From: Nonlabens ponticola
GTDB taxonomy: Bacteria > Bacteroidota > Bacteroidia > Flavobacteriales > Flavobacteriaceae
Length of the DNA: 32,000 nucleotides
Assembly: GCF_003966335.1 (NCBI RefSeq)
Contig: NZ_CP034549.1
Location: 2,070,001 to 2,102,000 of the forward strand
Direction of reading: 5' to 3'
Every line of letters starts with the position of its first letter. Positions within the stretch are counted from its first letter, which is position 1. This document shows positions 3 to 31,361 of this stretch, in pieces. Position numbers and translations under genes: made by a program. The notes beneath the pieces were generated by a model. It ran no database searches and had not been told where the DNA came from. It saw only the letters and a program-made list of their open reading frames with translations.

Positions 3-671
3 AATCAACAAGGTGGTCGTGGTACGGTATTACGCTTTCGCGAAAGCGTAACAACTATCAATACCTTAACAAGTAATGATCCTAAAACTAGTGCCATCAT
101 CCAGTCTCTATTGCGCACACACGGTGGCAGTACACAACAAGAAAACAGATTGAATATCGGTATGATTGCAACACGCAGTAATGTGACCGAAGATGAAGTT
201 GTAGCGTTGCTACAAGCACTAGAGGCTAAGGAACTTATTGATTTACAACTGGGGCAAAGTGATATGCAAGTAACCCTACTTCTCCCAAGAGATGATGATC
301 ACGCAGTTAGTAAATATGCACCGCTCATAAAGCAACAAAACCAAGTCAAAACGCAACAGTTGCAAGCAATGATGGCGTTATTGCAAGAAAACAAGAAATG
401 CTTGCAACAAATCATACTAGAATATTTTGATGAAAAGCATAGCACTCCATGCGGTACTTGTTCAAATTGCCTAAAACAAACCAAGTCTCAAAGTCCTAAA
501 AATATCTCTCTGCAAATTCTAAATATGTTGTCTGGAAAATGCCTAAGCGCACAGGAATTAGTTAACGCATTACATGTCAATCTAGAAGAAGTTCTTACAG
601 CTGTGAAAAGCCTAATGGAACAGCAAAAAATTACCATCACCTCTCATAATAAATACAAATTGAATGGATAA
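3..671 (+). CDS. RecQ-family DNA helicase, C-terminal fragment (5' end lies outside the window)
   Basis: Frame 3 is open from base 3 with no upstream stop. It carries a RecQ-type zinc-finger-like segment, CLQQIILEYFDEKHSTPCGTCSNCL. The ORF track start at 111 is an internal TTG. Confidence 0.6.
   Translation, partial: NQQGGRGTVLRFRESVTTINTLTSNDPKTSAIIQSLLRTHGGSTQQENRLNIGMIATRSNVTEDEVVALLQALEAKELIDLQLGQSDMQVTLLLPRDDDHAVSKYAPLIKQQNQVKTQQLQAMMALLQENKKCLQQIILEYFDEKHSTPCGTCSNCLKQTKSQSPKNISLQILNMLSGKCLSAQELVNALHVNLEEVLTAVKSLMEQQKITITSHNKYKLNG
30..51. repeat. palindrome copy 1: TTACGCTTTCGCGAAAGCGTAA (22 bp perfect, core 34-47)
   Basis: Read directly from the sequence. It lies inside the RecQ-like CDS, where the core region is read as R-F-R-E-S. 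Confidence 0.95.
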
Positions 672-1620
672 GAAATTGAAAATTGTCTTCTACGGTACGC
701 CAGAGTTTGCCACTGGTGTTCTAGAAACGCTACATAAGTCACCGCATGAGATAGTAGGTGTAGTTACCGCACCAGATAAGCCTGCTGGACGTGGTCGCAA
801 GATTCAGGAAAGTCATGTAAAACAGTATGCCGTGCAAAATAATTTGAACGTGCTGCAGCCTACTAATCTTAAAGCTCAAGAATTTCTGGACGACTTACAA
901 AGCCTTGAGGCAGATTTGCAAGTTGTCGTTGCCTTTAGAATGTTGCCTAAAGCTGTGTGGAGTATGCCGTCACGAGGAACTTTTAATTTGCACGCCAGCC
1001 TATTGCCTCAATATCGTGGAGCAGCACCTATTAACTGGGCAATCATCAATCAAGAGAAGGTTACTGGTGTTACAACCTTTTTTATTGATGAAAAAATAGA
1101 TACTGGAGCCATTATAGATCAAGAGAGCATTTCTATAGAGAAAGACGAGAATGTTGGTTCTTTATATAGTACGCTAATGCAATTGGGAGCTCAACTCACT
1201 CTCAAAACGGTAAATGCCATTGCCAAAGGCGATGTAAGCACTACCATTCAAAAGAATGCACAAGATCTTAAGGAAGCACCCAAACTAAATGCCAAAAACA
1301 CAACCATAGATTTTGAAAAATCAGCTAGAGAGGTTGATGCCTTGGTACGTGGCTTGAATCCCTATCCTGTCGCAAAGGCTAGTTTAATACAAGATGGAGA
1401 GCAGATGACAGTGAAAATTTTTGAAACGAGGATTATTGAAAAAGATCACCACATGACGGCTGGCAGCATCGTCATTGACGATAAGAGGATGATAGTTGCT
1501 TGTGAAGATAATTGGGTCGAGATCATCGAGATACAATTGCCCAATAAGAAACGAATGAAGATCGCTGATCTTCTTAACGGCTATTCATTCGCGCCGGATG
1601 CTAGATTTGGCAAGGCATAG
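664..1620 (+). CDS. fmt: methionyl-tRNA formyltransferase
   Basis: N-terminus KIVFYGTPEFA and the formyltransferase core HASLLPQYRGAAPINWAI. Length is 318 aa. The ATG overlaps the upstream stop by 8 nt. Confidence 0.93.
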   Translation: MDKKLKIVFYGTPEFATGVLETLHKSPHEIVGVVTAPDKPAGRGRKIQESHVKQYAVQNNLNVLQPTNLKAQEFLDDLQSLEADLQVVVAFRMLPKAVWSMPSRGTFNLHASLLPQYRGAAPINWAIINQEKVTGVTTFFIDEKIDTGAIIDQESISIEKDENVGSLYSTLMQLGAQLTLKTVNAIAKGDVSTTIQKNAQDLKEAPKLNAKNTTIDFEKSAREVDALVRGLNPYPVAKASLIQDGEQMTVKIFETRIIEKDHHMTAGSIVIDDKRMIVACEDNWVEIIEIQLPNKKRMKIADLLNGYSFAPDARFGKA

Positions 1621-1702
1621 CGATAAAATGATACGAACGCCAATGAGTTATTAACAATTGTTCGTGTTTATGAACATTTTATCGGTTTTATTGCTGTAAT
1701 CC

Positions 1703-1732
1703 TTGTGTGGTAGCATAATTCGGATAAATTTG
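1703..1732 (+). promoter_or_regulatory. Bacteroidota-type promoter candidate for hup
   Basis: TTG at 1703-1705, a 19-nt spacer, then TAAATTTG at 1725-1732, which matches TAnnTTTG. It lies about 40 nt upstream of the hup ATG. Confidence 0.4.
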
Positions 1733-1773
1733 TTTCACATTTTAGTTTAACCAACATTAATTTAAACTCCGTT

Positions 1774-2046
1774 ATGAACAAAACAGATTTAATTGAAGCA
1801 ATGGCAGAAGATGCTGGCGTTTCAAAAGCAGCAGCAAAAAAAGCACTAGAGTCATTTCTAGGAAACGTTGAAAAGAGCCTTAAAAAAGGTGACCGTGTAT
1901 CTCTAGTAGGATTTGGTTCTTTTTCAGTTTCTAAAAGAGCAGCTCGTGAAGGTAGAAACCCACAAACTGGTAAGACGATCAAGATCGCTGCTAAGAAAGT
2001 AGTAAAATTCAAAGCAGGTAGCGATTTACAGAAAGCTGTAAACTAG
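1774..2046 (+). CDS. hup: HU family DNA-binding protein
   Basis: A 90-aa protein with MNKTDLIEAMA...GFGSFSVSKRAAREGRNPQTGKTIKI, the typical HU/IHF arm. Confidence 0.95.
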   Translation: MNKTDLIEAMAEDAGVSKAAAKKALESFLGNVEKSLKKGDRVSLVGFGSFSVSKRAAREGRNPQTGKTIKIAAKKVVKFKAGSDLQKAVN

Positions 2047-2066
2047 TCTCACTAGCTTAAAGATTT

Positions 2067-2095
2067 AAACCCGCTTTTTAAAGCGGGTTTTTTTA
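2067..2095 (+). terminator. rho-independent terminator after hup
   Basis: Hairpin CCCGCTTT-tt-AAAGCGGG followed by a run of seven T. Confidence 0.8.
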
Positions 2096-2166
2096 TACCT
2101 AAGTGACAAAATTAAAAGTTTTGTTAATGTTGAAAAATAGTGTATGTTTAAACAAGGCTAATAAGC

Positions 2167-2727
2167 ATGGAAACGATCAAACCACAAAAAGGTAAACTAC
2201 TGGTTGCTGAACCTAGCATCATAGGCGATGAATCTTTCTCGAGATCTGTGGTCTTACTAACGGAGTTTAATCAGGAAGGCATCGTTGGTTTCATTGTCAA
2301 CAAGCCGCTTGATTACACATTAAGTGAATTATTACCTGAGGTTGATTGTGATTTTGAAGTCTACAACGGCGGCCCGGTAAGTACAGACAACCTTTACTTC
2401 TTGCATACGGTTCCAGATCTTATTCCAGGCTCCCATCATATACAGGATGGCATATTTTGGGGTGGTGATTTTAAAACAGTTTCACAGCTTATCAATGACA
2501 ATAAGCTTGATCACAATGACATAAAGTTCTTCTTAGGTTACACTGGTTGGGCAAGCTTGCAATTAGAACAAGAACTTAAACTCAAATCATGGGTTGTGAT
2601 TGACAATGAGGACCATGAGAACATCTTGTCAGACAAGATGCACGACATCTGGAAAGTTAAGATGCGTGATCTAGGCGATGGCTATGAAATCTGGTCAAAC
2701 GCTCCAGAAAATCCTGCCTACAATTAA
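2167..2727 (+). CDS. YqgE/AlgH family protein (UPF0301)
   Basis: GKLLVAEPSI..FSRSVVLLTEF...G.VGFIVNKP is the family signature. Length is 186 aa. Confidence 0.8.
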   Translation: METIKPQKGKLLVAEPSIIGDESFSRSVVLLTEFNQEGIVGFIVNKPLDYTLSELLPEVDCDFEVYNGGPVSTDNLYFLHTVPDLIPGSHHIQDGIFWGGDFKTVSQLINDNKLDHNDIKFFLGYTGWASLQLEQELKLKSWVVIDNEDHENILSDKMHDIWKVKMRDLGDGYEIWSNAPENPAYN

Positions 2728-3560
2728 CACAATAGTTTCTCGTTGAAATACTCGCGCAATTCTTGTGCGGCTTCTTGAGTATAGCTTTTCTTTCTATACT
2801 TAGTAATACTTTTTATTCCTTGAATAGAATTAGTAAAGAATAGCTCATCAGCTCGTTGTAACTCAAACGGTGTGATACTTTCCTCCTTAAATTCATAGCT
2901 CATCATGCGCTTTATTTGAGTAAGTACTTGCTCTCTCATGATGCCGTTGAGACAACCGTCTGATAACGGTGGTGTTTTAATGATGTTTCCTTGTCGCAGG
3001 AATAGATTTCCTGATATACATTCTGCCACCATCTTGTTATCATTAAGTAATAACATATCCTGGTAGTCATTCTCTTCTGCAAAAATACCAGCGAGTATGT
3101 TGACGGTTTTGGTAGTCGTCTTAAGATTAGTTAATAAGCTGGCCTGTACATAGAAATCTTTGAAGAGTTCAACCTCATAATTCGTGGAATCAGTAAAAAC
3201 TTGATCAAGAGTAGATAATTCCATACTCCATTGCACATTATTATCAGTAGGCGTATAATATCCGCCTTGTTTGCGCCATACGGTAATGCGTATCCTGCTG
3301 TGATCTAATGACGATGATTGCTGGTTGTGTAATAAATCTATTTGCTCTTTAAAAAACTCAAGCGTGAAATTATCAGGTATTTCCATACGCAGCATGCGCA
3401 TTGATGACATGAGCCTAAAGTAATGCGACTCAAGAAATATAGGAGCCGTTTTAAAACAGCGTATTGTTTCAAACAATCCATCACCGTAGTAGGTACCACG
3501 ATTGTTGTATGAGATTGTCGCATCGTTTTGTGCTACTAAGTTGCCGTTCAATAAGATCAT
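2724..3560 (-). CDS. class IV aminotransferase / aminodeoxychorismate lyase-like protein
   Basis: N-terminal segment ...RGTYYGDGLFETIRC, typical of fold-type IV PLP enzymes. Length is 278 aa. Its stop overlaps the stop of the convergent gene within TTAA. Confidence 0.7.
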   Translation of the reverse strand: MILLNGNLVAQNDATISYNNRGTYYGDGLFETIRCFKTAPIFLESHYFRLMSSMRMLRMEIPDNFTLEFFKEQIDLLHNQQSSSLDHSRIRITVWRKQGGYYTPTDNNVQWSMELSTLDQVFTDSTNYEVELFKDFYVQASLLTNLKTTTKTVNILAGIFAEENDYQDMLLLNDNKMVAECISGNLFLRQGNIIKTPPLSDGCLNGIMREQVLTQIKRMMSYEFKEESITPFELQRADELFFTNSIQGIKSITKYRKKSYTQEAAQELREYFNEKLLC

Positions 3561-3585
3561 AAAAAAAGCCCTGAATTACAGGGCT
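3561..3585 (-). terminator. hairpin plus U-tract downstream of the START-like gene, abutting the next ATG
   Basis: The minus strand reads AGCCCTG-taatt-CAGGGCT, then TTTTTTT, then ATG at 3560 with no spacer. Confidence 0.65.
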
Positions 3586-3609
3586 TAAAATTACAGCTTA
3601 TGTAAGTGT

Positions 3610-3999
3610 TTATCTAGATCCTAGAATCTTTTTTAGTCCACTTATCTGGTTTTCCCAGAACATTTTTTGCTCCTCAACTTCATCCTCATCATCACCAAAG
3701 TCAGTGATCATCAAGGAAACATCTTTGGTGATATCATCTACCTCAATGCGCAATTCAAAAAACTTTTTGGTATCCTCGTCATAATCCCATTGGAATCTTG
3801 CACGTTCCTCGCCTACACGTTTGATAATTTTGGCTTTTTCTTCTTGCCCATCCCATATAAAACGGAAGTACTCACCGCGGCTATTAACATTGTCAGCAAA
3901 CCACTCAGACATTCCAGATGGTGTGGCTATATATTGATACAATAGAGATGGCGATACTTGGACCACAAACTCCATTTCAAACTTTATTGGATCTTGCAT
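3610..3999 (-). CDS. START-like / SRPBCC (AHSA1-like) domain protein
   Basis: A 129-aa acidic protein. The pattern SPSLLYQYI.TPSGMSEWFAD resembles Bacteroidota START-like domain proteins. Confidence 0.55.
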   Translation of the reverse strand: MQDPIKFEMEFVVQVSPSLLYQYIATPSGMSEWFADNVNSRGEYFRFIWDGQEEKAKIIKRVGEERARFQWDYDEDTKKFFELRIEVDDITKDVSLMITDFGDDEDEVEEQKMFWENQISGLKKILGSR

Positions 4000-4080
4000 T
4001 TAAATTTACTTTGACGGCAATATACTGTATTACACTTAAGAGTTGAAAGTAATAATCATGAAAATTTAAGTGCAAGGCAT

Positions 4081-4112
4081 TTGGTCACCATATCAAATTA
4101 AAGTTATATTTG
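4081..4112 (+). promoter_or_regulatory. promoter candidate for the tRNA gene
   Basis: TTG at 4081-4083, a 21-nt spacer, then TATATTTG at 4105-4112 (TAnnTTTG). It lies about 34 nt upstream of the tRNA 5' end. Confidence 0.35.
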
Positions 4113-4145
4113 CACCCGCTTAAATGCTTGTGTGTTTAAGCCTCT

Positions 4146-4219
<74 letters not shown>

Positions 4220-4223
4220 CTTA

Positions 4224-4254
4224 AAACCTCTATCAATTTGATAGAGGTTTTTTA
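4224..4254. terminator. bidirectional terminator hairpin between the tRNA and the LacI-family gene
   Basis: A stem of about 11 bp, AACCTCTATCA-att-TGATAGAGGTT, followed by a T run on the + strand and TTTT on the - strand. It lies next to the LacI stop codon. Confidence 0.75.
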
Positions 4255-5256
4255 TTTTCTGGTAGTTCCTCTCTCTAGTAAAGAAGTCTTGAGCGTATGA
4301 ATGCGTGTCACTTTGATATCATCTTCATTATCAATGAGATTGCGCATTCTTATAAATGCCTTATTTCCCAATTCACGAGCGTGCTGATCAATTACCGTCA
4401 TTTTAGGATAAGAATATCGTGATAAAATACCATTAGAATATCCTATGATCTGTAGATCCTGAGGTATGGCAATATTGAGTTCATTAGCTTTATTTAATGC
4501 AATGATTGCTGCTGCTTGATCAAGCGCTATCACAGCGTCAATACCATCATAGCGCAACGCATCTTCCATGCGTTTCTCAAATTGAGCCTCTTCGGTAGAA
4601 GTTATTACATTGAGGATGACATCCTCATGGGATTCCATCGCCTTGCGCACGCCTTGTTCTCGCAACTGCCCTACATTGATCTGACTTATGGAGCTGGCCA
4701 TACAAATGTGCTTATCACCACGATCTACTAGGAACTCTACCGCACGAGCTGCGGATAGAACGTCATCAACCACAATCTTATCACATTCTACGTCATCGAT
4801 ACTGCGGTCAAACATCACCATAGGTATGTTTTTATCGACCACTCGTTGTAAATGAGTAATTTGATTACTTGTTTGAGTTTCTTTGGCTGCTGCGATGATT
4901 ATTCCATCAATACTGTTATCATCCAGTACATCAAGATATGCTACCTCCTTATCCAGCGACTCATTGGTAAGACAAGTGATGACTTTATAATTATGTTGAG
5001 TAGCTACTTCTTCTATACCTGTTAGGACTTGTGCAAAAAAGTCATTAATCACGTCAGGAATGACTACGGCGACGATTTTGTTCGTCTTAGGATTGACAAC
5101 GGTACCTTTGTAACCCAACCTTTTGGCTGCTTCTATTACGAGCAGTTTAGTCTCTTCACTAATCTCATCGCTATCCTTGAGCGATTTTGAGATAGTTGAT
5201 ATAGACAGTCCTACTTCTTTTGCTAGTACGTTCAGGGTGACTTTGTTACGTTTCAA
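4252..5256 (-). CDS. LacI family transcriptional regulator
   Basis: N-terminal HTH VTLNVLAKEVGLSISTISKSLKD followed by a periplasmic-binding-protein-like sugar-binding fold. Length is 334 aa. The start appears to be TTG, and an in-frame stop lies 9 codons upstream. Confidence 0.88.
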   Translation of the reverse strand: MKRNKVTLNVLAKEVGLSISTISKSLKDSDEISEETKLLVIEAAKRLGYKGTVVNPKTNKIVAVVIPDVINDFFAQVLTGIEEVATQHNYKVITCLTNESLDKEVAYLDVLDDNSIDGIIIAAAKETQTSNQITHLQRVVDKNIPMVMFDRSIDDVECDKIVVDDVLSAARAVEFLVDRGDKHICMASSISQINVGQLREQGVRKAMESHEDVILNVITSTEEAQFEKRMEDALRYDGIDAVIALDQAAAIIALNKANELNIAIPQDLQIIGYSNGILSRYSYPKMTVIDQHARELGNKAFIRMRNLIDNEDDIKVTRIHTLKTSLLERGTTRK

Positions 5257-5310
5257 GAATGTCGTTTTAATGGTAAAGGTAACTCATGATTGTTCAAGTG
5301 AAAGTTGTGA

Positions 5311-5332
5311 TTACGCTTTCGCGAAAGCATAA
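5311..5332. repeat. palindrome copy 2: TTACGCTTTCGCGAAAGCATAA (core 5315-5328, one mismatched pair in the arms)
   Basis: Read directly. It is intergenic, in the divergent region between the LacI gene and the giant T9SS-protein gene. Confidence 0.95.
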
Positions 5333-5458
5333 TAATTATAAATAAAAATCTTAAAACATCGTTTAAAAGCGTTTTCATATCGTTTAAATACATAATAATA
5401 GGTTAATTACCGTTTATTAGGATGAAATACACTAGGTTTATATCAGAAGTGTACGATT

Positions 5459-8400
5459 ATGAAACTTATTACTCTACAAAAATTTACGATCGCTCTACTT
5501 TTCTTAAGTCTTTCTCTATCAGGACAAACCAGTTATGTTGAGGTAGAAGCATTCTTTGAAAATGGCGATAGTTTTCAAGCTGCACAAATATTTGACAGCG
5601 CTGGCAACGTTGTTCTCACAGTATGTGATGATGCTAATTGCTACGACGGCACCACCCAAAATAATTATAGCATTGCTGGAAACATAGGTTGTATCGCAAA
5701 CGGCACCTATACATTGAGAACATATGACCGTAGTCCGGATGGCAACTGGAATGGAAATTCTTTTTTCAGGATCGTTGTTGCAGGCGTTGAGGTAGTCAAT
5801 AGATCTCATACCAGCGGTACACAAACACAGGACAATACCTTTAGCATTTCAGGAGGCGGCACACAGTGTGCAGCTGATATTAATATTCAAGGCGCCGGAA
5901 ACGATATTATAGATGGTGATACTACACCATCTATCAATGATGGCACTGACCATGGTAACGTTACTGTTTCTCAAACAAGTACCAAGACATTTATCGTACA
6001 GAATACAGGTACTAATGACCTCAATCTAAATAGTGGCACTCCGGTACAAATTTCGGGAGCGGACGCTGCGGACTTTAGTATTACCTCACTACCTGCTTCT
6101 ACAATCTCTGGTGGTGGAAACAGTACTTTTGAGATTACCTATACGGCACGTAGTACGGCACCATACACAAGTAATGCGACTGTTACAATCGCCAACAATG
6201 ATCCTGATGAAGGATCCTACTCTTTTAATATCTCAGGTAATACCACTCGTGATTTATCCAATTTCCCACTTACAAACATCGCTTATTACAATTTTGAAAC
6301 AAATCTAGTAGGATGGACTACCGCTGGTACAAATCTGACTTGGGTAGTAGGAAGAAACGCAGAGAAAGGTGAAGGCGATTATGCCTACACCAGCAACTTT
6401 AACGATTACCCTAGTAATTCAAGCGCTTATTTAATCTCACCAATTATTAGCACCGTAGGATTTGATAATCTAGAACTGTCGCTGGACTTTTTCACGAACA
6501 CCGCAGACGCTGAAGACGGCATGCGTGTAGAATATAGTCCCGATGGCGGCGCAAGCTGGTTTGTTTTGGGTAGCACAACTTCGGGATCTAATTGGTATGA
6601 TACCACAACAGTTACTGGAATAAGCGCGACGGCAAATGCCTGGACTGGATTAAGTAGTACACTAGATTCATCAATTAGTAGATTTGAAACTGGGAAGCAT
6701 GAGCTGCCTGCTACCCTAGAAAATAATCCTAATGTTCAAATAAGAGTTCTATTTGCCGCTAATGGATCGGGAAACAGCGATGGTGTAGCTGTTGACAATA
6801 TGATTGTCTCTGGACGACCACTAACTTATAGCGCACCTCTGGTTGGTCCGGCAAATGAAACCTCTCAACTATCCTTATGGCTAGATGCATCAACTCTAAG
6901 TGCTGCAAATGGCAGTAAACTAACTCAATGGGATGATCAGGCCGAAAACAATAACGCAGCCGAAACTACCGCAAATGCACCTACATACACTGATAATGTC
7001 AATGACAATGTAAACTTTAATCCTGCGGTAACCTTTGATAGAAGTCAAGGGCAACACATGAGAGGCTCCGGTGGTTTCAATTCTCAAGATTACTGGATTG
7101 TCGTGCGCAGTACGCTAGACATATCAAATGAACTAGCTGATGAGACATTGCTGCTAGGTTCCAAATACTCTGTAGATAACTCTTCAAATGATCCATCAGG
7201 ACTAGGTTGGGGAACGGTATCTATACGTTATGACGATGAAGTGCTGGCTCACAGTATTGATCCTGTTTCTCAATCTGACGTGAACACACCTAGTTATGGT
7301 CGCGCCTTTACCGATGCCAGTAGAAGATTTGATGATGTCAACATTATCAATGTAAAAACCAACGCTGCTGGAACCCAGACAGAGCTTTATATCAATGGTC
7401 GTCGTGTGGACAACACAACAGGCCAAACAACGCAAAGCTTTGAGCAACTCTTGTTCAATGAATTTACCAACACACCATATTATTTAGGTGTAGGTCGCTA
7501 TACATTAACTGGACTACCCTTTGAAAGTCATCTTGATGGTCAAATTACTGAAGTTATCAGTTTTAGGGATTCAAGATCTGCGGCAGCTCAGCAAAAGATT
7601 TTCTCTTACCTCGCTATAAAAAACGGAGTGTCATTACACAATCCTAATAGTGCCTTGACTATAGACGATCATATAGCCAATTGGGATTACGTAAACTCTG
7701 ATAACACTGTGATTTGGGATGCAAGCGCAAATACAACTCACAATTATGACGTTGCAGCAATAGGTCGCGATGATGTCCTAGGATTAGAGCAAAAACAATC
7801 GCAGAGTGAGAATAGCACGAGCATACTTTCCATCGGACTAGTTAATGTTACTGATCTAGGAACACAAAATTCTAATGCTTTTTTAAGCGACAAACAGTTT
7901 TTGATTTGGGGTCATGATAATGGTTCATTGGCAAAGAGCCCTGCAGATATCAATCATACCGTGGGAACTACAATATCCGTACCTACACAAATGACTAGAA
8001 TTAATAGATCCTGGAAGATTCATGAAGTAGGTTCTGGCGATATAGAAGTTGCAGAAGTTAGGGTGCCAACATCAGCGTTTGCATCGCTGGGTGCGATAAG
8101 TGGCGATCAAGAAAGAGTTTTGATCATTGCAGACGATGCTAATTTCACTAGCAACGTTAGAACAGTATTTTTTAAGACGGATGGGATTTATGAGCGAGTA
8201 AAAGTCGATATCGATGGTGTCAAATACTTTACACTTGGTAAGGCAGATGTGGTTTATTCTGCACAAGGGCTTGAATTTGATGGTATAGATGACTATGTAG
8301 AGATTCTAGGTGGTAACGATATATCTACCTCATTTACGGTAAGCTCTTGGGTAAAAAGCACTGGTTCCAATAACACTAATAGTGTCAAAACGATCGTAGC

Positions 8401-10816: not shown

Positions 10817-12178
10817 TCTACTGATAATATCGCCAGGAGTAAGTGATTGTTGCTCGCCAGTAAGCATATTCTTTAGAGTAAGTTTACCAGCTGCAATTTC
10901 ATCTTCGCCAGCTAGAACGACATAAGGAATAGCGTTCTTGTCGGCATAGGTCATTTGCTTTTTCATCTTTGCATCGTCTGGATAAAGCTCTGTTTTGATT
11001 CCGCTTTCGCGAAAGCGGAACACCCAATCAACACAGTAACTAGCTTCTTGCTTTCCAAAATTGATAAACAATACCTGCACGCCAGCTCTCACGGTTTCTG
11101 GAAAAAGATCCAGTTCTTCAAGAACTAGATAGATACGATCCAATCCAAAACTGATGCCAACGCCGCTCATATCCTTCATACCAAAAATACTGGTCAAATC
11201 GTCATAACGGCCACCGCCACTGATGCTTCCCATGCTTACTCCATGAGGAGCAGCAACTTCAAAGATGCAACCCGTATAATAATTGAGGCCTCTAGCCAGT
11301 GTTATGTCTAGGTCTAATAAAGTGGTTTTGAGTCCTAATGTTGAGACATGATCAAGCACCGTTTCAACCTCAATGATACCTTCTTGACCTGTTGTTGATG
11401 TCTGGAGTAACTCTTTCATTACTACCAGCTTTTCTTGAGCAGTACCAACAAGAGCAAACACGGGCGATAATTGGTCAATAGCATCACGGCTTATGCCTTT
11501 ATCAATCATCTCTTGCTTAACCTTGTCCTCTCCTATTTTATCAAGCTTATCAAGAGCAACTGTAAAATCAATGAGCTTATCCTGCGCACCGATTACTTCG
11601 GCAATTCCAGCTAAAATTTTGCGATTGTTTATTTTGATGGTGCAGCCGTTCAATCCTAAATCTGAATAGACATCGTCAAATAGTTTCACTAGCTCTACTT
11701 CTTGTAGCAAACTATCGCTACCTACAACATCTGCATCGCATTGTGTGAATTCCCTGTATCTACCTTTTTGCGGTCTATCGGCACGCCAGACGTTTTGAAT
11801 CTGGTATCTTTTGAAGGGAAAAGCAATCTCATTCTGGTGTTGCACAACATATCTCGCAAATGGTACAGTAAGATCATATTTTAAGGCACGGTCGCTAATC
11901 ACGCTTGTGATTTTTGTCTCATCCTTATCAGCTAATAAGGCTGAGTCTACTTTTCTTAAATACTCACCATTATTAAGCACCTTAAAAATCAAACGATCAC
12001 CTTCATCTCCATACTTACCCATCAAGGTCTCGCTATTTTCAAAGCTAGGCGTCTCAATAGGCATAAAACCATACAGCTCAAAATGCTTCTTGATCGTATC
12101 GATGATATAGGATCTGCGCGATACTTCCAGCGGATTGAAATCTCTTGTACCTTTAGGTATAGACGGTTTTTGTGCCAT
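10808..12178 (-). CDS. hisS: histidine--tRNA ligase
   Basis: PKGTRDF near the N-terminus, class II aaRS motifs (FRYERPQKGRYREF-like WRADRPQKGRYREFTQCD, GGGRYD), and a C-terminal anticodon-binding domain. Length is 456 aa. Confidence 0.95.
   Translation of the reverse strand: MAQKPSIPKGTRDFNPLEVSRRSYIIDTIKKHFELYGFMPIETPSFENSETLMGKYGDEGDRLIFKVLNNGEYLRKVDSALLADKDETKITSVISDRALKYDLTVPFARYVVQHQNEIAFPFKRYQIQNVWRADRPQKGRYREFTQCDADVVGSDSLLQEVELVKLFDDVYSDLGLNGCTIKINNRKILAGIAEVIGAQDKLIDFTVALDKLDKIGEDKVKQEMIDKGISRDAIDQLSPVFALVGTAQEKLVVMKELLQTSTTGQEGIIEVETVLDHVSTLGLKTTLLDLDITLARGLNYYTGCIFEVAAPHGVSMGSISGGGRYDDLTSIFGMKDMSGVGISFGLDRIYLVLEELDLFPETVRAGVQVLFINFGKQEASYCVDWVFRFRESGIKTELYPDDAKMKKQMTYADKNAIPYVVLAGEDEIAAGKLTLKNMLTGEQQSLTPGDIISRLS
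10999..11020. repeat. palindrome copy 3: TTCCGCTTTCGCGAAAGCGGAA (22 bp perfect, core 11003-11016)
   Basis: Read directly. It lies inside hisS (minus strand), read as R-F-R-E-S-G in the anticodon-binding domain. Confidence 0.95.
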
Positions 12179-12314
12179 GGTTTAATTTGAAGTGCAAATA
12201 TAAAAAGCTAGAACCGTACCTACACGACGATCATGTTCTAATACAGGAGAGTCATCACTTTAATTATTCTCTGTATTACTGTAACTTTTACCATTGTAAA
12301 CAGTCAAACAAACC

Positions 12315-14137: not shown

Positions 14138-14677
14138 ATGAAGACTGATCACATTTTCATACAGCAATTTAAATCCAGGTTTGGCAAGTTGATCATAGGC
14201 GTTCACAATGATAAGTTATGCCTGTGCGACTGGAAATATCGAGCAAAAAGACAGCAAATAGATGAACGCATAAAGCAATATCTCAATGCAGAATTTGTGC
14301 AAAAAAATCATGAGCTGATAGATGAGACCGTCAATCAGCTTAATAAATATTTTATTGGAGATCTTCGATCATTTACAGTACCCATAAAATTGAGTGGTAC
14401 CGACTTTCAAAAAAGTGTTTGGAATGATTTAATGACGATTCCTTACGGCAAGACTTTGTCGTATGGTCAGCTTTCGCGAAAGCGTAACAATCCTAAAAGC
14501 ATTAGAGCAATCGCCGCAGCAAACAGTGCAAACGCCATATCGATCCTCATACCTTGTCATAGAATTATAGGCAGCGATGGCTCATTGGTAGGCTATGCTG
14601 GTGGCTTAAAAGCAAAAGAACAATTACTAAAATTGGAAGGCGTGGACTTAACTAACGGTCAGCAACAGCTGTTCTAA
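14138..14677 (+). CDS. ogt: methylated-DNA--protein-cysteine methyltransferase
   Basis: Active site IPCHRIIGSDGSLVGYAGG and the upstream helix-turn-helix segment. I prefer the ATG at 14138 over the TTG at 14129 used by the ORF track. Confidence 0.9.
   Translation: MKTDHIFIQQFKSRFGKLIIGVHNDKLCLCDWKYRAKRQQIDERIKQYLNAEFVQKNHELIDETVNQLNKYFIGDLRSFTVPIKLSGTDFQKSVWNDLMTIPYGKTLSYGQLSRKRNNPKSIRAIAAANSANAISILIPCHRIIGSDGSLVGYAGGLKAKEQLLKLEGVDLTNGQQQLF
14470..14483. repeat. palindrome copy 4: core GCTTTCGCGAAAGC only
   Basis: Read directly. It lies inside ogt, read as (Q)L-S-R-K-R. Confidence 0.95.
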
Positions 14678-18104: not shown

Positions 18105-18126
18105 TTCCGCTTTCGCGAAAGCGTAA
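18105..18126. repeat. palindrome copy 5: TTCCGCTTTCGCGAAAGCGTAA (core 18109-18122, one mismatched pair)
   Basis: Read directly. It is intergenic, between the convergent 3' ends of the hydrolase gene and priA. Confidence 0.95.
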
Positions 18127-20681: not shown

Positions 20682-21098
20682 TTAAAGACGCTGCCATTGT
20701 TGCGTGCGATAAAAAAATGCTACATAACCACGTACATTAAGTGTGTTCTTATCCTCAAGCCAGATTTTACAGTCATATGATTTACCATTTTTGGGGTCGA
20801 TCACAGTACCATCCTCATATTTATCGCCATCTTTCTCTAGCCCATACATGATGACCATTCCTTCAATAGGTTGATCCTTGCGTGATCCTGGGCAATAAAC
20901 ACATAAAGCAGGATCTGGCGCATCTGGGTCAAGAACCTTGAGAACTTTACCCTTGATCTGGTCACCGTCACGATAGATTTCTACATGAGACATTACATTA
21001 CCAGTATTATCGTCGATGGTTTTCCAGGTTCCTGTGACGTCTTGAGAGTTAGCTTTCGCGAAAGCAAAACACAACAAAACCGCAACTACATATTTCAT
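20682..21098 (-). CDS. DUF2147 domain-containing secreted protein
   Basis: Signal peptide followed by GTWKTIDDNTG...SHVEIY..GD.IKGKV, typical of DUF2147. Length is 138 aa. Confidence 0.75.
   Translation of the reverse strand: MKYVVAVLLCFAFAKANSQDVTGTWKTIDDNTGNVMSHVEIYRDGDQIKGKVLKVLDPDAPDPALCVYCPGSRKDQPIEGMVIMYGLEKDGDKYEDGTVIDPKNGKSYDCKIWLEDKNTLNVRGYVAFFYRTQQWQRL
21052..21065. repeat. palindrome copy 6: core only
   Basis: Read directly. It lies inside the DUF2147 gene (minus strand), read as A-F-A-K-A at the end of the signal peptide. Confidence 0.95.
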
Positions 21099-22681: not shown

Positions 22682-23543
22682 GCACTGCTTTAAGACTCAA
22701 ATCCAAATTGTAAACACTATGTGTAAGTGCGCCGCTTGAGATGTAATCAACGCCGCATTCTGCATACTGGCGTACGGTATCGAGTGTGATGCCGCCACTA
22801 CTTTCGGTTAGGCACTTATCGCCTATTAATTTGACAGCCGCTCGTGTATCCTCATAATTAAAGTTGTCGATAAGAATACGATAAACATGCTCGTGGGATT
22901 CCAGTATTTCCTTTATCTCTTCCATATCTCGCGCCTCTACAATAATTTTCAAGTCACGACCTAGCTCTTCAAGGTAAGCTACCGTCTTGCGTATTGCCTG
23001 CGTGATGCCACCAGCAAAATCAATGTGGTTGTCTTTAAGCATAATCACATCGTACAATCCTTGACGATGATTGACGCCACCACCTATATGTACTGCCCAC
23101 TTTTCCAACAGCCTTATTCCTGGTGTGGTTTTTCTGGTGTCCAGAATCTTAGTTCCAGTACCTTCAAGTTTCTCAACAAAGGTTTTGGTTTTGGTAGCAA
23201 TCGCACTCATACGTTGCATGCTGTTCAGTACAAATCTTTCTGCCAGCAATATGGATTGAGATGATCCAGATACATGAAATACCTCATCACCATGCGTTAC
23301 TTGATCACCGTCGTTAAAACACGTGGCAATTTTTATGTTGGGGTCGACTTTGTGGAATACCGCTTTCGCGAAAGCTACACCAGCAACAACACCTGTGTCT
23401 TTGACTAGCAACCGTGCTTTGCCCATAGCACTTGCAGGGATGCATGCGAGACTGCTGTGATCGCCGTCACCTACATCTTCTCGTATGGCATTAGCGATGA
23501 TACGATCTTGTTCCCTTTCAAATTGGGAGCCACTATATTTCAT
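22674..23543 (-). CDS. nadC: nicotinate-nucleotide diphosphorylase (carboxylating)
   Basis: QPRTase pattern ...EDVG.GDH.S.. ..., ILDTRKTTPG.R.LEK.AV..GGG.NHR.GL.D..MLKDNH. I prefer the ATG at 23543 (MKYSGS...) to the upstream GTG at 23594, whose extension is hydrophobic and looks non-genic. Confidence 0.9.
   Translation of the reverse strand: MKYSGSQFEREQDRIIANAIREDVGDGDHSSLACIPASAMGKARLLVKDTGVVAGVAFAKAVFHKVDPNIKIATCFNDGDQVTHGDEVFHVSGSSQSILLAERFVLNSMQRMSAIATKTKTFVEKLEGTGTKILDTRKTTPGIRLLEKWAVHIGGGVNHRQGLYDVIMLKDNHIDFAGGITQAIRKTVAYLEELGRDLKIIVEARDMEEIKEILESHEHVYRILIDNFNYEDTRAAVKLIGDKCLTESSGGITLDTVRQYAECGVDYISSGALTHSVYNLDLSLKAVHE
23362..23375. repeat. palindrome copy 7: core only
   Basis: Read directly. 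It lies inside nadC (minus strand), read as A-F-A-K-A. Confidence 0.95.
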
Positions 23544-26854: not shown

Positions 26855-28241
26855 ACTATTTACAGAGTTTGATCCAGTAAGCGAGGCGCAATGGAAACAG
26901 AAAATACAGTACGATCTCAAGGGCGCGGACTATAATGAGACGCTCATAACCAAAACTCCATCGGGCATTCATATCAAGCCATTATATCTTCCAGATAGCC
27001 AGGTAGAAATGAATTTACCATCACGAGCCACGCATGATGGCGGCTGGTACATTTCGCAAAAAATCTATTGTGGCAATGCCGCCGCAGCTAATAAAAAAGC
27101 GCTGGATATACTCAATCGAGGTGCCGAAGGTTTGATCCTAGACATACCAAAGGCTGATGTTGATCTGGAACAACTCTTTGACAACCTGCCAGCAGTTGGT
27201 ATTCAAGTACATCCACGGTTCATGGATTTGGATTTTTTGGACAGACTCCACAAAATTGCCCCTAATGCTTATGTGCATTTTGATATTCTACACGAGTTGG
27301 GTCATCGCGGCAATTGGTTCAAAAATCAAAAAGTTGATTTTGAAAAGCACTCAAAATTTCTAAAAAACTACAAGGGCTATTTCTCAAATATAACGATCAC
27401 CACCAGTCATTATCAGCAGGCTGGAGCTACTGTAGTTCAGGAGTTGGCTTACTACGCTGCGCATTTGCATGAATATTTGAATGCTTATTGCCATGATGCT
27501 AGCTTGCAGGATGATGGTATTTATTCCGCTTTCGCGAAAGCTGACAAACGAATAAACATCGATACAACCATTGGGCCTGATTACTTCATGCAAATTGCTA
27601 AATACAGGGCTTACCGAGTCATCACCAAGTCCGTTGGAAAGCTATATGATTTGAATCTTGAAGCATACATCACGGCAACGCCTAGTTTGCGCAACAAATC
27701 ACTATTGGATTACAACGTTAACCTGCTGCGCACAACAACCGAATGCATGAGTGCGGTCTTGGGTGGCGCAGATACGGTACACAACCTAGCTTATGATGCT
27801 TTCTTTCATAAGGAAAACGAATTTGGCGACAGGATCGCTCGCAATCAGTTGCTCATTCTCAAGGAAGAGGCTTACCTGAACAAAGTAGCTAACGTCGCAG
27901 ATGGCACTTACTATATCAACGCACTCACTAAAGAACTGACGGAAAAGGCCATGCAAATTTTCAAAGAAATTGAAAAAGCAGGTGGTTTGGTTCAGTCGCT
28001 ATTTGAAGGTACTATCCAGCGCAAGACCAAGGAAAGTGACACGTCGGAGCGTGAAAAAGTGCAAAACGGCAACCAGATCATGGTAGGTGTCAACAAATTT
28101 CCAAACACAGCGCAACCGCTGCAAAGCGAATACGAAATCCTGCCGTTTCAAAAAATTGAACATCGCAAAACCTTAGTGACGCCTATCTCATTCAAACGAC
28201 TTGCCGAAGAAATAGAAAAATCAGAAATGCCGAAAAAATGA
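26835..28241 (+). CDS. mutA: methylmalonyl-CoA mutase small (beta, non-catalytic) subunit
   Basis: The FDPVSEAQWKQKIQYDLKG N-terminus and mutase-fold core match. The DxHxxG B12-binding motif is absent. It lies upstream of the large subunit gene. The start could instead be the ATG at 26844. Confidence 0.8.
   Translation: MKTMSDKLFTEFDPVSEAQWKQKIQYDLKGADYNETLITKTPSGIHIKPLYLPDSQVEMNLPSRATHDGGWYISQKIYCGNAAAANKKALDILNRGAEGLILDIPKADVDLEQLFDNLPAVGIQVHPRFMDLDFLDRLHKIAPNAYVHFDILHELGHRGNWFKNQKVDFEKHSKFLKNYKGYFSNITITTSHYQQAGATVVQELAYYAAHLHEYLNAYCHDASLQDDGIYSAFAKADKRINIDTTIGPDYFMQIAKYRAYRVITKSVGKLYDLNLEAYITATPSLRNKSLLDYNVNLLRTTTECMSAVLGGADTVHNLAYDAFFHKENEFGDRIARNQLLILKEEAYLNKVANVADGTYYINALTKELTEKAMQIFKEIEKAGGLVQSLFEGTIQRKTKESDTSEREKVQNGNQIMVGVNKFPNTAQPLQSEYEILPFQKIEHRKTLVTPISFKRLAEEIEKSEMPKK
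27528..27541. repeat. palindrome copy 8: core only
   Basis: Read directly. It lies inside mutA, read as A-F-A-K-A. Confidence 0.95.
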
Positions 28242-28723: not shown

Positions 28724-28767
28724 GCGGTCAAGTGGTTAAATCAATAAAGAAATATAGAATATCAGGA

Positions 28768-29229
28768 ATGAAAGCTGTTAACAGATTTGCCTGTATATCT
28801 TGTTTCTACATATGTCTTTTATTTCTTGCTACTTCATGCCATGACAATGAATTAGAGCAGCAATTGATAGGGTCGTGGGAAGTGGTAAGCAGTGAAATAA
28901 TGGAAAAACCGCTACCAGAAACAGCACCTGATGAAAATCGAGGCAACCCCAATTCCTACTTTACCATAGGCGACGGCTGGAGATTTACTGATGAAAATGA
29001 TATTTATCTTTCTGGTGCGATTACAAGTCAATTATCGCCACCTCGATATTTTGAGATCGTGGGCGATCGGCTCCATCTATTTCTGCGCAGGAAAAATGAA
29101 AAGTACAGTAGTCAATATCCGCCCATGGCGACTTTTAAAACTACCATGGACAGCGACTCAACTTTGCTTGTGCAATCTTTACGCAGTGCACAGCATGAAA
29201 ATGTGCAGGTGACCCTTAAGAAACAATAA
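28768..29229 (+). CDS. lipocalin-like lipoprotein, hypothetical (paralog 2)
   Basis: Lipobox LATSC followed by [10 protein letters not shown]. It shares NRFA..., L(Q/H)LFLR..NE and (A/V)TLK(R/K) with paralog 1. I prefer the ATG at 28768 to the GTG at 28732. It ends 2 nt before the mutB ATG. Confidence 0.6.
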
Positions 29230-29231
29230 TT

Positions 29232-31361
29232 ATGAGTAGAAAAGATATTTCAAACCTAGAAATCATATTTGATGACGCAACTAGCGTTTCTAAACAGGTC
29301 AATGAATCTACTTATGAGACTTCAGAAGGTATTCATCTTAAAAATCATTATTCAAAAGATGATATAGCAGATCTAGAACACCTAGAATTTGCCGCTGGAA
29401 TAGCACCTAATTTACGTGGTCCCTACTCTACCATGTACGTGCGCAGACCTTGGACCATAAGGCAATACGCTGGCTTCTCTAGTGCGACAGAATCCAATGC
29501 ATTTTACCGTAGAAATCTTGCTGCAGGACAAAAAGGTCTTTCTGTAGCATTTGATCTAGCCACACATCGCGGTTATGACAGCGATCATGAGCGTGTGATA
29601 GGTGACGTAGGTAAAGCTGGTGTTGCCATTGATAGTGTCGAGGATATGAAAATCCTTTTTGATCAGATACCATTGGATAAAATGTCTGTGTCCATGACCA
29701 TGAACGGTGCCGTGTTGCCTATTATGGCTTTTTACATCGTGGCTGCTATGGAGCAAGAAGTTGACGTCGATAAATTAAGCGGTACGATACAGAATGATAT
29801 CCTAAAGGAATTCATGGTGCGCAACACCTATATCTATCCGCCTACACCTAGTATGCAGATCATCTCCGACATTTTTGAGTACACCAGTAAGAACATGCCT
29901 AAGTTCAATTCCATCTCTATTTCTGGTTATCACATGTATGAAGCTGGTGCGACGAGTGATATTGAACTAGCCTACACACTGGCAGATGGATTAGAATATG
30001 TGCGCAAGGGTCTAGCCGCAGGAATGGACATCGACACCTTTGCACCACGCTTGTCATTCTTTTGGGCTATAGGCATGAATCACTTTATGGAAATTGCCAA
30101 GATGCGCGCAGCACGCATGCTGTGGGCAAAAATGATCAAGCAATTCAATCCTAAAAATCCCAAATCGCTGGCATTACGCACGCATTGCCAGACATCAGGC
30201 TGGTCTCTGGCAGAACAAGATCCGTTCAACAACGTTGCGCGAACAACTATCGAGGCTGCCGCTGCCGCATTTGGTGGTACGCAGAGTTTGCATACCAATG
30301 CCCTTGACGAGGCCATTGCCTTGCCTACAGATTTCAGCGCGCGTATCGCTAGGAACACGCAGATATATCTGCAGGAAGAGACTGGAATTACTAACACGGT
30401 CGATCCTTGGGCTGGCTCCTATTATGTTGAATCGCTTACCGATCAAATCGCTCACAAATCCTGGGAACTTATACAAGAAGTTGAGAAATTAGGCGGAATG
30501 ACCAAGGCCATTGAGGCTGGCATTCCTAAAATGCGTATAGAAGAAGCAGCCGCCAAAAAACAGGCACGTATTGATTCAAATCAGGACGTGATTGTTGGCG
30601 TCAACAAATATCCTAGTCCAGACGAGGATCACATAGACACCCTTGAGGTGGACAACGCTGCCGTGCGCGCAGATCAAATCAACCGCCTAGAAAAGATCAA
30701 GGCAGAACGTGACAACGATAAAGTCAATGCAGCACTGGACGCTTTAACGGCACGCGCAAAGACTGGCGATGGCAATTTGCTGGAACTAGCCGTTACCGCT
30801 GCAAAGGAACGCGCCACTTTAGGTGAAATTTCAGATGCTTTGGAAAAGGAATTCGGTCGCTATCGTGCACAGATCAAGAGTGTTCAAGGTGTTTATAAAA
30901 AAGAGATTATGGATGATTCCGCTTTCGCGAAAGCGCAACAATTAGCAGACGAGTTTGCAAAAAAAGAAGGTCGTCGTCCACGCATCATGATCGCAAAAAT
31001 GGGTCAAGACGGTCACGACCGTGGTGCCAAAGTAGTCGCAACAGGCTATGCAGACGTAGGATTTGACGTGGACATAGGACCACTATTCCAAACACCAGCC
31101 GAAGCAGCCAAACAAGCCGTGGAAAATGATGTGCATGTTCTAGGTGTTTCCTCACTTGCGGCAGGTCACAAAACACTTGTACCACAAGTCATGGCAGAGC
31201 TCAAGAAGTATGGCCGCGACGACATCATGATTATAGTTGGCGGCGTGATACCGCGAAAAGACTATGAATTCCTATTTGAATGCGGCGTGGCAGCAGTCTT
31301 TGGCCCTGGTACTAAGATCAGTGATGCGGCAATTGATATATTGACGTTGCTGGAAGCCTAG
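29232..31361 (+). CDS. mutB: methylmalonyl-CoA mutase large (alpha, catalytic) subunit
   Basis: ...[53 protein letters not shown]... plus a C-terminal B12-binding domain with GQDGHDRG (DxHxxG). Length is 709 aa. Confidence 0.95.
30920..30935. repeat. palindrome copy 9: CGCTTTCGCGAAAGCG (16 bp, core 30921-30934)
   Basis: Read directly. It lies inside mutB, read as A-F-A-K-A in the linker before the B12-binding domain. Confidence 0.95.

Follow-up and report, generated by a model that had tools for sequence, protein, structure and literature searches.

We observe that the perfect 14-bp palindrome GCTTTCGCGAAAGC occurs in nine exact copies in a 32-kb window of Nonlabens ponticola (NCBI RefSeq assembly GCF_003966335.1, contig NZ_CP034549.1, positions 2,070,001 to 2,102,000; the window denotes this whole stretch of DNA), and that it is a genomic word specific to the Nonlabens-Dokdonia lineage of the Flavobacteriaceae. 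In its specificity for one lineage, its origin by substitution, its conservation as DNA sequence and its non-random spacing, the word belongs to the same class as the highly iterated palindrome HIP1 and the DNA uptake sequences (DUS), and it is kept by selection. The copies start at window positions 34, 5315, 11003, 14470, 18109, 21052, 23362, 27528, and 30921. An initial annotation of the window had reported nine exact copies and argued that they cannot be due to chance. All nine were recovered, dinucleotide-preserving shuffles of the window contain 0 copies, and Markov models of order 1 and 3 give an expected count of 1e-4 to 2e-5 per 32 kb. Searching the window with one to two mismatches allowed yielded no copy beyond the nine exact ones, and centred sub-words of at least 8 nt (TTCGCGAA and longer) are confined to the full 14-mer. 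Cross-species positional conservation, over-regular spacing, polar flanks and the presence of d(GCGAAAGC) as the 3' half of the word go beyond what had been annotated.

With respect to context, the genic copies in the window are read as A-F-A-K-A (four copies), F-R-E-S (two copies) and L-S-R-K (one copy), and two further copies are intergenic. The genes to which copies had initially been assigned (recQ, hisS, ogt, a DUF2147 gene, nadC, mutA, and mutB, on both strands) all hold, with copies 2 and 5 lying between genes. The palindromic extensions are also as first described, that is, perfect over 22 bp at copies 1 and 3 and over 16 bp at copy 9, and reaching 22 bp with one mismatched pair at copies 2 and 5. 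The copies are as follows.

Copy 1, 34..47: in recQ (+ strand, window start to 671), read as R-F-R-E-S; perfect 22-bp palindrome TTAC..GTAA
Copy 2, 5315..5328: intergenic, flanked by two divergently starting genes, one for a LacI-family regulator (4252-5256, - strand) and one for a 1785-aa protein secreted by the type IX secretion system (T9SS) (5459-10816, + strand)
Copy 3, 11003..11016: in hisS (- strand), read as R-F-R-E-S; perfect 22-bp palindrome TTCC..GGAA
Copy 4, 14470..14483: in ogt (+ strand), read as L-S-R-K
Copy 5, 18109..18122: intergenic, flanked by two converging genes, an alpha/beta-hydrolase gene (17318-18040, + strand) and priA (18163-20613, - strand)
Copy 6, 21052..21065: in the DUF2147 gene (- strand), signal-peptide region, read as A-F-A-K-A
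Copy 7, 23362..23375: in nadC (- strand), read as A-F-A-K-A
Copy 8, 27528..27541: in mutA (+ strand), read as A-F-A-K-A
Copy 9, 30921..30934: in mutB (+ strand), read as A-F-A-K-A; 16-bp palindrome

The frame of copy 1 is the one that continues into the open reading frame (ORF) at 111-671, with RecQ_Zn_bind in the same frame, and recQ of Nonlabens sp. YIK11 carries a copy (L245 19477) at approximately equal distance from the stop codon; in the codon alignment, Rasiella recQ has neither the word nor an indel at this site. YIK11 also has a counterpart of copy 2 (L245 14178) in the corresponding intergenic gap. The hisS word (copy 3) lies on identical codons in N. marinus, YIK11 and Croceiramulus, and the ogt word (copy 4) has orthologues in N. 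marinus, YIK11 and the Dokdonia genome CP138994, so that this site is common to both genera. Counterparts of copy 5 follow priA in N. marinus (L122 12467) and N. dokdonensis (L125 12480), and the same site in YIK11 (L121 12467) is broken by a 21-nt hairpin insert. Orthologues of copy 6 are present in YIK11, N. marinus and N. arenilitoris, as well as in Croceiramulus in the one-mismatch form GCTTTCGCGAAATC, and the DUF2147 genes of Rasiella and Gillisia have nothing resembling the word at this site. Copy 7 (nadC) has orthologues in YIK11 and N. marinus. The orthologue of copy 8 (mutA) is intact in N. marinus and split in YIK11 by a 21-nt in-frame hairpin insert, and copy 9 (mutB) has orthologues in YIK11, N. 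marinus and an uncultured Flavobacteriaceae metagenome-assembled genome whose mutB is 71% identical at the DNA level.

PriA and HisRS encoded in the window match N. ponticola proteins of a 2.87-Mb contig at 100% identity; a look-up of the exact MutB sequence of the window returned no record. Abundance was measured in loci retrieved via PriA or HisRS, independently of word content. The Nonlabens and Dokdonia loci plus the window contain 39 copies in 164.6 kb, or 1 copy per 4.2 kb, and extrapolation of this density predicts approximately 680 copies per N. ponticola genome. Copy numbers in the individual loci are given below.

Nonlabens sp. YIK11, two loci of ~22 kb each: 4 and 5 copies
N. marinus, ~22-kb locus: 7 copies
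N. arenilitoris, ~22-kb locus: 4 copies
N. dokdonensis, ~22-kb locus: 4 copies
Dokdonia genome CP138994, ~22-kb locus: 6 copies

A scan for the exact 14-mer in one genome per species returned at least 120 matching stretches. About two-thirds of the matches listed come from Nonlabens, Dokdonia and uncultured Flavobacteriaceae, with many 8-kb blocks containing two to three copies, and the remaining matches listed are singles in unrelated high-GC genomes, in line with chance. In Dokdonia sp. R86516, matches are found at 0.88, 1.38, 2.15, and 2.82 Mb, and we observe a similar scatter in other genomes. Since copies lie far apart within complete chromosomes, a local cluster of the parS type is ruled out. 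The 14-mer has 0 copies in the Rasiella rasia and Gillisia loci, both of which are largely syntenic. In the retrieved loci, no other k-mer comes near the abundance of the word. The idea that the word is both genome-wide and lineage-specific is thus supported by the whole-chromosome scatter in many Nonlabens and Dokdonia genomes and by the absence of the word from the Rasiella and Gillisia loci. Ordinary duplicated DNA, which had been named as one outcome that would overturn this idea, does not account for the copies, as they are spread chromosome-wide and have flanks that are unrelated to one another save for a weak consensus.

At the edge of this distribution, Croceiramulus getboli (CP123444) has two exact, two one-mismatch and two two-mismatch copies in 21 kb. 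At least two of these are orthologous to Nonlabens sites (hisS, exact; DUF2147, as GCTTTCGCGAAATC), and the word system seems to be weaker or decaying in this genus. A literature search, with subscription journals outside its scope, found no paper containing the 14-mer or an iterated palindrome in Nonlabens, Dokdonia or flavobacteria at large, and likewise none on a Nonlabens methylome; in this phylum, the word has apparently gone undescribed so far.

Orthologues that lack the word align without an indel, indicating that the word arises by substitution. There is no indel at the word in MutB relative to the P. shermanii and human MutB sequences, nor in NadC relative to NadC sequences with solved structures in the Protein Data Bank (PDB), and codon alignments of hisS, nadC, DUF2147 and recQ with word-less species show no indel at the word either. 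At the hisS site, Rasiella has AAA CTT CGT GAG GCA (K-L-R-E-A) and Gillisia has GAA TTA AGA GAA GCA (E-L-R-E-A), and the Nonlabens clade has CGC TTT CGC GAA AGC (R-F-R-E-S), so that the change from the word-less to the word-bearing state amounts to about 8 bases and 3 amino acids at unchanged length. Such gap-free alignments agree with the earlier opinion that the word does not resemble a transposable element.

Furthermore, selection acts on the DNA and not on the encoded peptide. NadC of N. arenilitoris reads E-F-A-K-A at the site of copy 7, on the codons GAA TTT GCA AAG GCC and without the word; a near-identical peptide is thus encoded by other codons, which shows that the peptide is not the target of selection. 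The exact word encodes, in long ORFs from five Nonlabens loci, 14 of the 17 AFAK peptides, 5 of the 5 LSRK peptides and 4 of the 4 FRES peptides. Peptide-level selection was rejected on the basis of the codon alignments and of this nearly exclusive encoding of the peptides by the word. Across 684 kb of flavobacterial sequence we find 153 copies, with 63 in the AFAK frame, 29 in the LSRK frame, 28 in the FRES frame and 33 in no ORF (that is, outside any ORF of at least 90 aa); approximately 78% of copies are within ORFs and in frame, in host genes of all kinds and in both orientations. The word enters, in any of the three frames, at places where the surrounding protein-coding or intergenic sequence can accommodate it. 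For genome annotation, this means that the AFAKA, LSRK and RFRES peptides which recur in these proteomes arise as by-products of a signal in the DNA.

Once present, the word is strongly conserved. N. ponticola and N. marinus share 72% DNA identity, with a third-codon-position identity of 0.38-0.50, and 6 of the 6 aligned genic copies are intact in N. marinus on identical codons (7 of 7 when the intergenic copy after priA is included), compared to 2.2% of control 14-mers that are fully conserved in the same alignments (chance probability of 6/6 conservation, ~1e-10). Synonymous positions within the word are fixed across species with near-saturated silent sites. Several window copies are also common to YIK11, N. 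arenilitoris and N. dokdonensis. In HisRS, RFRES is found in nearly all Nonlabens- or Dokdonia-like homologues and, among the named outgroup genera, in Croceiramulus only, a distribution that dates the hisS copy to the base of the clade.

Sites behave in an all-or-none manner, as lost sites are several substitutions away from the word and one-mismatch copies are rare. Orthologous sites are either perfect or 5-8 substitutions off, an example of a lost site being hisS of Dokdonia CP138994 (CGT TTC CGT GAT AAC). The ratio of exact to one-mismatch copies is approximately 12:1, and two-mismatch copies are at about chance level. The copy in mutA lies at approximately residue 140 in Dokdonia sp. R86516 (L075 7881) and at residue 231 in Nonlabens (window 27528), which suggests positional turnover with retention of a copy in the same gene.

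With respect to spacing, we observe that copies repel one another at short range. The spacing test was conditioned on the copy number per locus and is therefore not affected by ascertainment. Adjacent distances of less than 1 kb make up 2 of 70, versus 18 expected, a value that 0 of 5000 simulations reach (P < 2e-4), and none of the 70 distances is below 856 bp. Spacing within the window has a coefficient of variation (CV) of 0.30 (P = 0.0008), and for 26 independent spacings from loci that were not word-selected, the mean is 4.4 kb, the CV is 0.37 and the shortest distance is 2259 bp.

The longest word-free stretch of the window (5.7 kb) is almost filled by the gene at 5459-10816, which encodes the 1785-aa T9SS-secreted protein, a laminin-G protein whose counterparts vary in length (871 aa in YIK11 and at least 1618 aa in N. 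marinus). This gap fits, anecdotally, with the word being depleted in variable DNA. In YIK11, the longest gap between exact copies (7.2 kb) has the one-mismatch copy GCTTTCGCGCAAGC mid-way (L245 3215), where regular spacing predicts a copy.

The word is embedded in a weak palindromic consensus, TTMC-word-GKAA, with C at position -1 and G at position +1 in 80% of copies, and in a broader compositional context. Over approximately 25 nt on the 5' side, C drops to 0.06-0.09 versus a background of 0.19 and the flank is rich in T and G; over approximately 25 nt on the 3' side, G is at 0.08-0.12 and the flank is rich in A and C. Both flanks are at background by ~30 nt, giving a symmetric context of ~64 bp with the same polar pattern read on either strand (for example, window 10978-11002 and 11017-11041, or 21027-21051 and 21066-21090). 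The skew is found at all three codon positions, including the third, and is independent of gene orientation. Both flanks are skewed in 69% of copies, without a negative correlation between sides, which rules out simple leading/lagging-strand mutation; replication asymmetry (lagging-strand deamination) was rejected as a cause of the skew because it is seen on both sides of the same copy. We find no left-right base-pair covariation beyond position ±2, and folds including the flanks are inconsistent (z from -5.2 to -0.2), indicating that the flanks do not lengthen the stem. On these two grounds, an extended hairpin or cruciform is rejected. The flanks of different copies are unrelated beyond ±4, apart from their composition.

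The stem of 5 bp around a CGCG loop, or 9 bp with the arms, that had been pointed out in the initial annotation is reproduced by DNA folding, with predicted energies of -2.1 kcal/mol (14-mer) and -7.3 kcal/mol (22-mer). On either strand, positions 7-14 of the word spell d(GCGAAAGC), so that the word contains an octamer of the mini-hairpin DNA class d(GCGNNAGC). The d(GCGAAAGC) octamer forms an extraordinarily stable, nuclease-resistant mini-hairpin that binds single-stranded DNA-binding protein (SSB) poorly and is present at the phage G4 primase site (PMC13037366). Only 5 of 61 occurrences of GCGAAAGC lie outside the full 14-mer; since the octamer is almost absent outside the palindrome, the selected unit is the 14-mer.

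An RNA-level hairpin, which had also been proposed as a candidate, appears unlikely, as T-tracts are missing from all copies and the sequence downstream of them is depleted in T (0.22-0.25 versus a background of 0.31). None of the 29 terminator-like sites in window 1-20000 is at a copy. Intrinsic terminators were rejected on account of the missing T-tracts and of this lack of overlap, and copy 5, after priA, is not scored as one. An Rfam search returned tRNA only and no family at word sites; a tRNA-Met (CAT) gene lies at window 4146-4220, flanked by a START-like gene and by the gene of the LacI-family regulator. Unlike the word, window 13945-13974, between an FtsX-like permease gene and ogt, is a strong bidirectional intrinsic terminator, with a perfect 13-bp-stem hairpin and T-tracts on both strands.

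The lytic Nonlabens phage P12024S (L370, JQ823122; 35.7 kb) has 0 copies of the word, compared to the ~8.5 expected at host density. A search of this phage with up to two mismatches found no copy, and TCGCGA is also absent (0 occurrences). CGCG is present 9 times versus 43.6 expected (z = -5.2), GGCC 0 times versus 34.8 expected, and CCGG 2 times versus 33.9 expected, avoidances which imply at least three four-bp restriction specificities in the Nonlabens host; the phage has its own DNA methyltransferase gene (32699-33376). As CGCG avoidance is the usual signature of host restriction, the central CGCG of the word is probably methylated in the host, either by a restriction-modification system or by an orphan methylase. 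CGCG and TCGCGA are not enriched in the host outside the word. The prophage-like contig L179 (IMGVR_UViG_2617271332_000001), which encodes a prohead protease of the S49 type along with an amidase and a tail protein resembling a depolymerase, has 3 copies in 11.3 kb, a host-like density. Matches in a scan of viral contigs are mostly single and presumably due to chance, with a few prophage-like contigs carrying several.

A different repeated word is found in the Rasiella rasia locus (L248, CP049057, 21.4 kb), where CTTCGGAAA, a 9-mer that is not palindromic, is present in 12 copies distributed over both strands and several frames, compared to a maximum of 7 and a mean of 4 for the best 9-mer in 200 order-2 Markov simulations of this locus. 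Nine of the 12 copies, all genic, are on the coding strand. CTTCGGAAA and the Nonlabens word have the common core TTCG(C)GAAA, the Rasiella core TTCGGAAA being one base off the Nonlabens core TTCGCGAAA, and the Gillisia locus has neither the 14-mer nor CTTCGGAAA. This suggests, from one locus only, that the Rasiella 9-mer is a dialect of the kind known in Neisseriaceae and Pasteurellaceae.

In a 22-kb locus of YIK11, an identical 21-nt perfect hairpin interrupts 2 of the 6 word sites, in both cases at the same central point, the other 4 being intact. The split sites are the following.

L121 4760-4800: mutA site, corresponding to window 27528; the insert is in frame and adds 7 codons
L121 12467-12508: site after priA, corresponding to window 18109

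The insert CCTGCCTGACCGGCAGGCAGG has the structure CCTGCCTG-ACCGG-CAGGCAGG. Its 20-mer CTGCCTGACCGGCAGGCAGG is present in at least 120 metagenome contigs from soil, groundwater and sediment (L250-L369), with G+C contents of 33-75% and unrelated flanks, a wide spread that is unrelated to the Nonlabens-Dokdonia clade. Among the matches listed, C is nearly always found before the 20-mer and C or T after it; 53 of these matches have a spanning ORF, with the frame kept open in 50 of the 53, and 41 of the 50 open-frame occurrences are in one frame, L-P-(D-R or A-G)-Q-A-G (LPDRQAG or LPAGQAG). No paper found in a literature search contains the insert sequence. The insert is either a very widespread in-frame micro-insertion or an artefact.

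The reading that we tentatively favour takes the word as a self-DNA tag that is recognised in the course of uptake and/or of the recombinational processing of DNA ends; its information excess, the contrast with the phage, the even spacing, the putative Rasiella dialect and the flank polarity are what lead us to it. The host-like density in a prophage-like contig, the analogy with HIP1 and its effect on natural transformation, and the natural competence of Riemerella also count in its favour. The whole 14-bp dyad would be read by a sequence-specific machine, probably a dimer, and would mark a cell's own chromosome in the manner of DUS, the uptake signal sequences (USS), Chi and, as proposed, HIP1. 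Even spacing would place one tag on every fragment of a few kilobases, and the excess of information would keep foreign DNA free of tags. The core alone has an Rsequence of at least 28 bits versus an Rfrequency of 12 bits for 1 site per 4.2 kb, an excess that would be typical of discrimination words such as DUS and USS and atypical for ordinary binding sites. Chi-type resection would spare the G/T-rich strand 5' of the word, and RecA prefers GT-rich DNA.

Several points weigh against a self-DNA tag. Known uptake sequences and Chi are 5-12 nt long and not palindromic, and molecular-drive models predict many one-mismatch copies, which are rare here. Even spacing and exact dyad symmetry suit an architectural DNA-binding protein equally well, and the polar flanks are without an established explanation under any model. 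In addition, one lytic phage is a thin sample and its lack of the word could follow from CGCG avoidance, and the Rasiella dialect comes from one 21-kb locus, so that the common core could be a coincidence. It is conceivable, although a long shot, that the word is also written: an enzyme particular to the clade would make a cut at the dyad centre, or close to it, in cognate or near-cognate sites, followed by short-patch copying from another copy, as a form of "homing" gene conversion without a mobile element. Writing of this kind would explain the all-or-none states, the scarcity of one-mismatch intermediates, a flank consensus and composition that fade over ~25 nt in the way of conversion tracts, and the two split sites in YIK11.

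Among the alternatives to a self-DNA tag, an architectural role, in which a clade-specific dimeric nucleoid- or condensin-associated protein would bind the word and divide the chromosome into regular units (loop anchors or supercoil-domain boundaries; compare Xu et al. on HIP1), is somewhat unlikely. This argument has a precedent (PMC5861425), and it would fit a perfect dyad with 14 of 14 positions invariant and half-sites not enriched, over-regular spacing with a minimum distance, positional conservation, absence from the lytic phage and a ~64-bp symmetric context of the size of a protein-complex footprint. However, parS, the Noc-binding site (NBS), matS and the SlmA-binding site (SBS) number tens per genome within one macrodomain, compared to ~680 predicted copies everywhere; a structural site needs ~12 bits and not at least 28; and the different position in mutA of Dokdonia and Nonlabens suits a density requirement better than fixed anchors. 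Strand-polar flanks would also be odd for a reader of duplex DNA. They are expected of a single-strand process, and such a process could be a hairpin signal, with GCGAAAGC on the lagging-strand template or on resected or incoming strands marking sites of priming or replication restart, or protecting 3' ends. The presence of the octamer on both strands of the word points in this direction, as do the properties of the octamer and its occurrence at primase-dependent single-stranded DNA (ssDNA) phage origins (PMC13037366) and the two YIK11 copies with a hairpin insert exactly at the would-be hairpin tip. We nevertheless consider a hairpin signal improbable, given that the octamer alone is not selected (5/61 outside the 14-mer), that the 14-mer reaches only -2.1 kcal/mol, that flank folds are inconsistent without stem-extending covariation, and that compensatory variants, which would be expected, are not seen.

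It is less probable still that the word is functionless and continually regenerated by a CGCG or TCGCGA methyltransferase with an associated bias of short-patch or mismatch repair, a by-product of the type that Elhai proposed for HIP. The word does have CGCG within TCGCGA at its centre, the approximately five-fold avoidance of CGCG by the phage implies a CGCG-targeting activity in the host, and HIP words co-occur with methylases that recognise their cores (PMC4390886). A bias on a 4-6-bp site, however, cannot set all 14 positions, host CGCG and TCGCGA show no enrichment outside the word, and the phage avoids GGCC and CCGG, both unrelated to the word, equally. Regular spacing and orthologous conservation (controls, 2.2%) also argue for selection of sites and not for replenishment. 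An element acting in RNA, whether an mRNA hairpin, a processing site or a Rho-dependent or intrinsic terminator, sense or antisense, is very unlikely: the same hairpin would form from either transcribed strand and the A/C-rich, G-poor downstream tract is like a short Rho-utilisation site, but copies lack Rfam matches and T-tracts, T is depleted downstream, and the copies lie in genes of all kinds and orientations. The hairpin is also weak, and for an RNA structure an exact sequence would not be required and compensatory changes would be expected. The high copy number, palindromic core and weak flank consensus might finally recall a miniature mobile element, a repetitive extragenic palindromic (REP)-like repeat, spread by insertion or by a REP-associated transposase, or ordinary duplicated DNA, explanations that are effectively refuted for the cases examined. 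Word-less orthologues show no indel, ~78% of copies are in frame within ORFs even though an insertion of 14 nt, not being a multiple of 3, would shift the reading frame, flanks are unrelated beyond ±4, and copies are orthologous across species.

HIP1, DUS, USS and Chi are among the few DNA signals that act chromosome-wide, and the role of HIP1 has been debated for three decades. The word looks like an independent case in another phylum, with an unusually clean signal and with copies that can be dated through orthology. It also comes with handles: the 22-mer as a pull-down bait, the likely CGCG methylation, a word-less phage, and hosts that are cultured and sequenced. Nonlabens and Dokdonia are model marine proteorhodopsin bacteria. 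If the word is indeed a self-DNA tag, this would point to cryptic natural transformation or to a new Chi-like system in abundant marine Flavobacteriia, and could possibly offer a practical route to transforming the hard-to-engineer Nonlabens and Dokdonia.

Among known systems, parS (16 bp), NBS (14 bp), matS (13 bp) and SBS (12 bp) resemble the word in being exact or near-exact 12-16-bp dyads that are often genic and are read by dimers. The half-site is similar (TTTC...GAAA), with arms that are 4 bp apart in parS and NBS and 2 bp apart here. These sites number from a few to ~70 per genome in one region, whereas the word is present in hundreds of copies everywhere. The mini-hairpin DNA of Hirao is the exact octamer found at the 3' end of the word on either strand; it is known from a few phage and plasmid origins and not genome-wide, and here the octamer occurs essentially only with the full palindrome.

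Comparison with Chi and the FtsK-orienting polar sequences (KOPS), made in the initial annotation, applies in part: the word is its own reverse complement and has no orientation, so that a strict orientation signal of this kind is excluded, but an orientation-independent Chi-like function is possible. Escherichia coli Chi has a density like that of the word (~1 per 4.5 kb), and Chi and RecA-preferred sequences are G/T-rich, as is the strand 5' of the word. Chi may likewise be a "self" mark that is absent from lytic phage. It differs in being 5-8 nt long, asymmetric, co-oriented with replication and only few-fold over-represented. HIP1 has lately been likened to Chi (bioRxiv 10.1101/2024.09.10.611283).

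DUS (Neisseriaceae, 10-12 nt) and USS (Pasteurellaceae, 9-nt core plus AT-rich flanks) share with the word their clade specificity, an information excess over frequency, an origin by point substitution at tolerant genic and intergenic sites, and a core with a weaker extended context. Like the word, for which the Rasiella CTTCGGAAA is a putative sister-genus dialect, they are also held in common by related genera, and they are fairly evenly spaced along the chromosome. They differ in being non-palindromic and shorter, with a density of ~1 per kb and common one-mismatch copies. Biased uptake and competence machinery have been demonstrated for DUS and USS, and nothing of this kind is known for Nonlabens or Dokdonia; natural competence has been reported in Riemerella, described there as a member of the Flavobacteriaceae, and is not known in Nonlabens or Dokdonia (PMC7965970).

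The differences from HIP1 (GCGATCGC) lie in the sequence itself, in length (8 bp versus 14 bp here), in taxonomic range (cyanobacteria versus Bacteroidota) and in density, which is 1 per 0.4-3 kb for HIP1 and 1 per 4.2 kb for the word, making the latter ~4-10x sparser. One-mismatch variants of HIP1 are common and conserved, whereas those of the word are rare, and the spacing signal of HIP1 is a 10-90 kb period, compared to short-range repulsion here. To our knowledge, strand-polar flanks of ~25 nt have not been reported for HIP1. For HIP words, co-occurring methylases recognise the cores (PMC4390886), and for the word described here the methylase is putative. The likeness to HIP1, DUS and USS that was noted at the outset is nonetheless apt, since orthologous conservation beyond protein constraint and non-random spacing are found here as in HIP1, for which a function was inferred from over-representation, orthologous conservation and periodicity (PMC5861425). 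Both are G+C-rich palindromes with a CG-containing centre that stand in genomes of lower G+C content and exceed their expected number by orders of magnitude. Both occur in coding (all frames) and non-coding DNA, spread by substitution and are conserved at orthologous sites beyond codon or peptide constraint (PMC5861425, PMC4390886), and both combine quasi-periodic, non-random spacing and a core that is a likely methylation target with an unsettled function. HIP1 boosts natural transformation in a way that depends on both homology and methylation, and uptake-like and Chi-like roles have been proposed for it (bioRxiv 10.1101/2024.09.10.611283, 10.64898/2026.06.24.733823).

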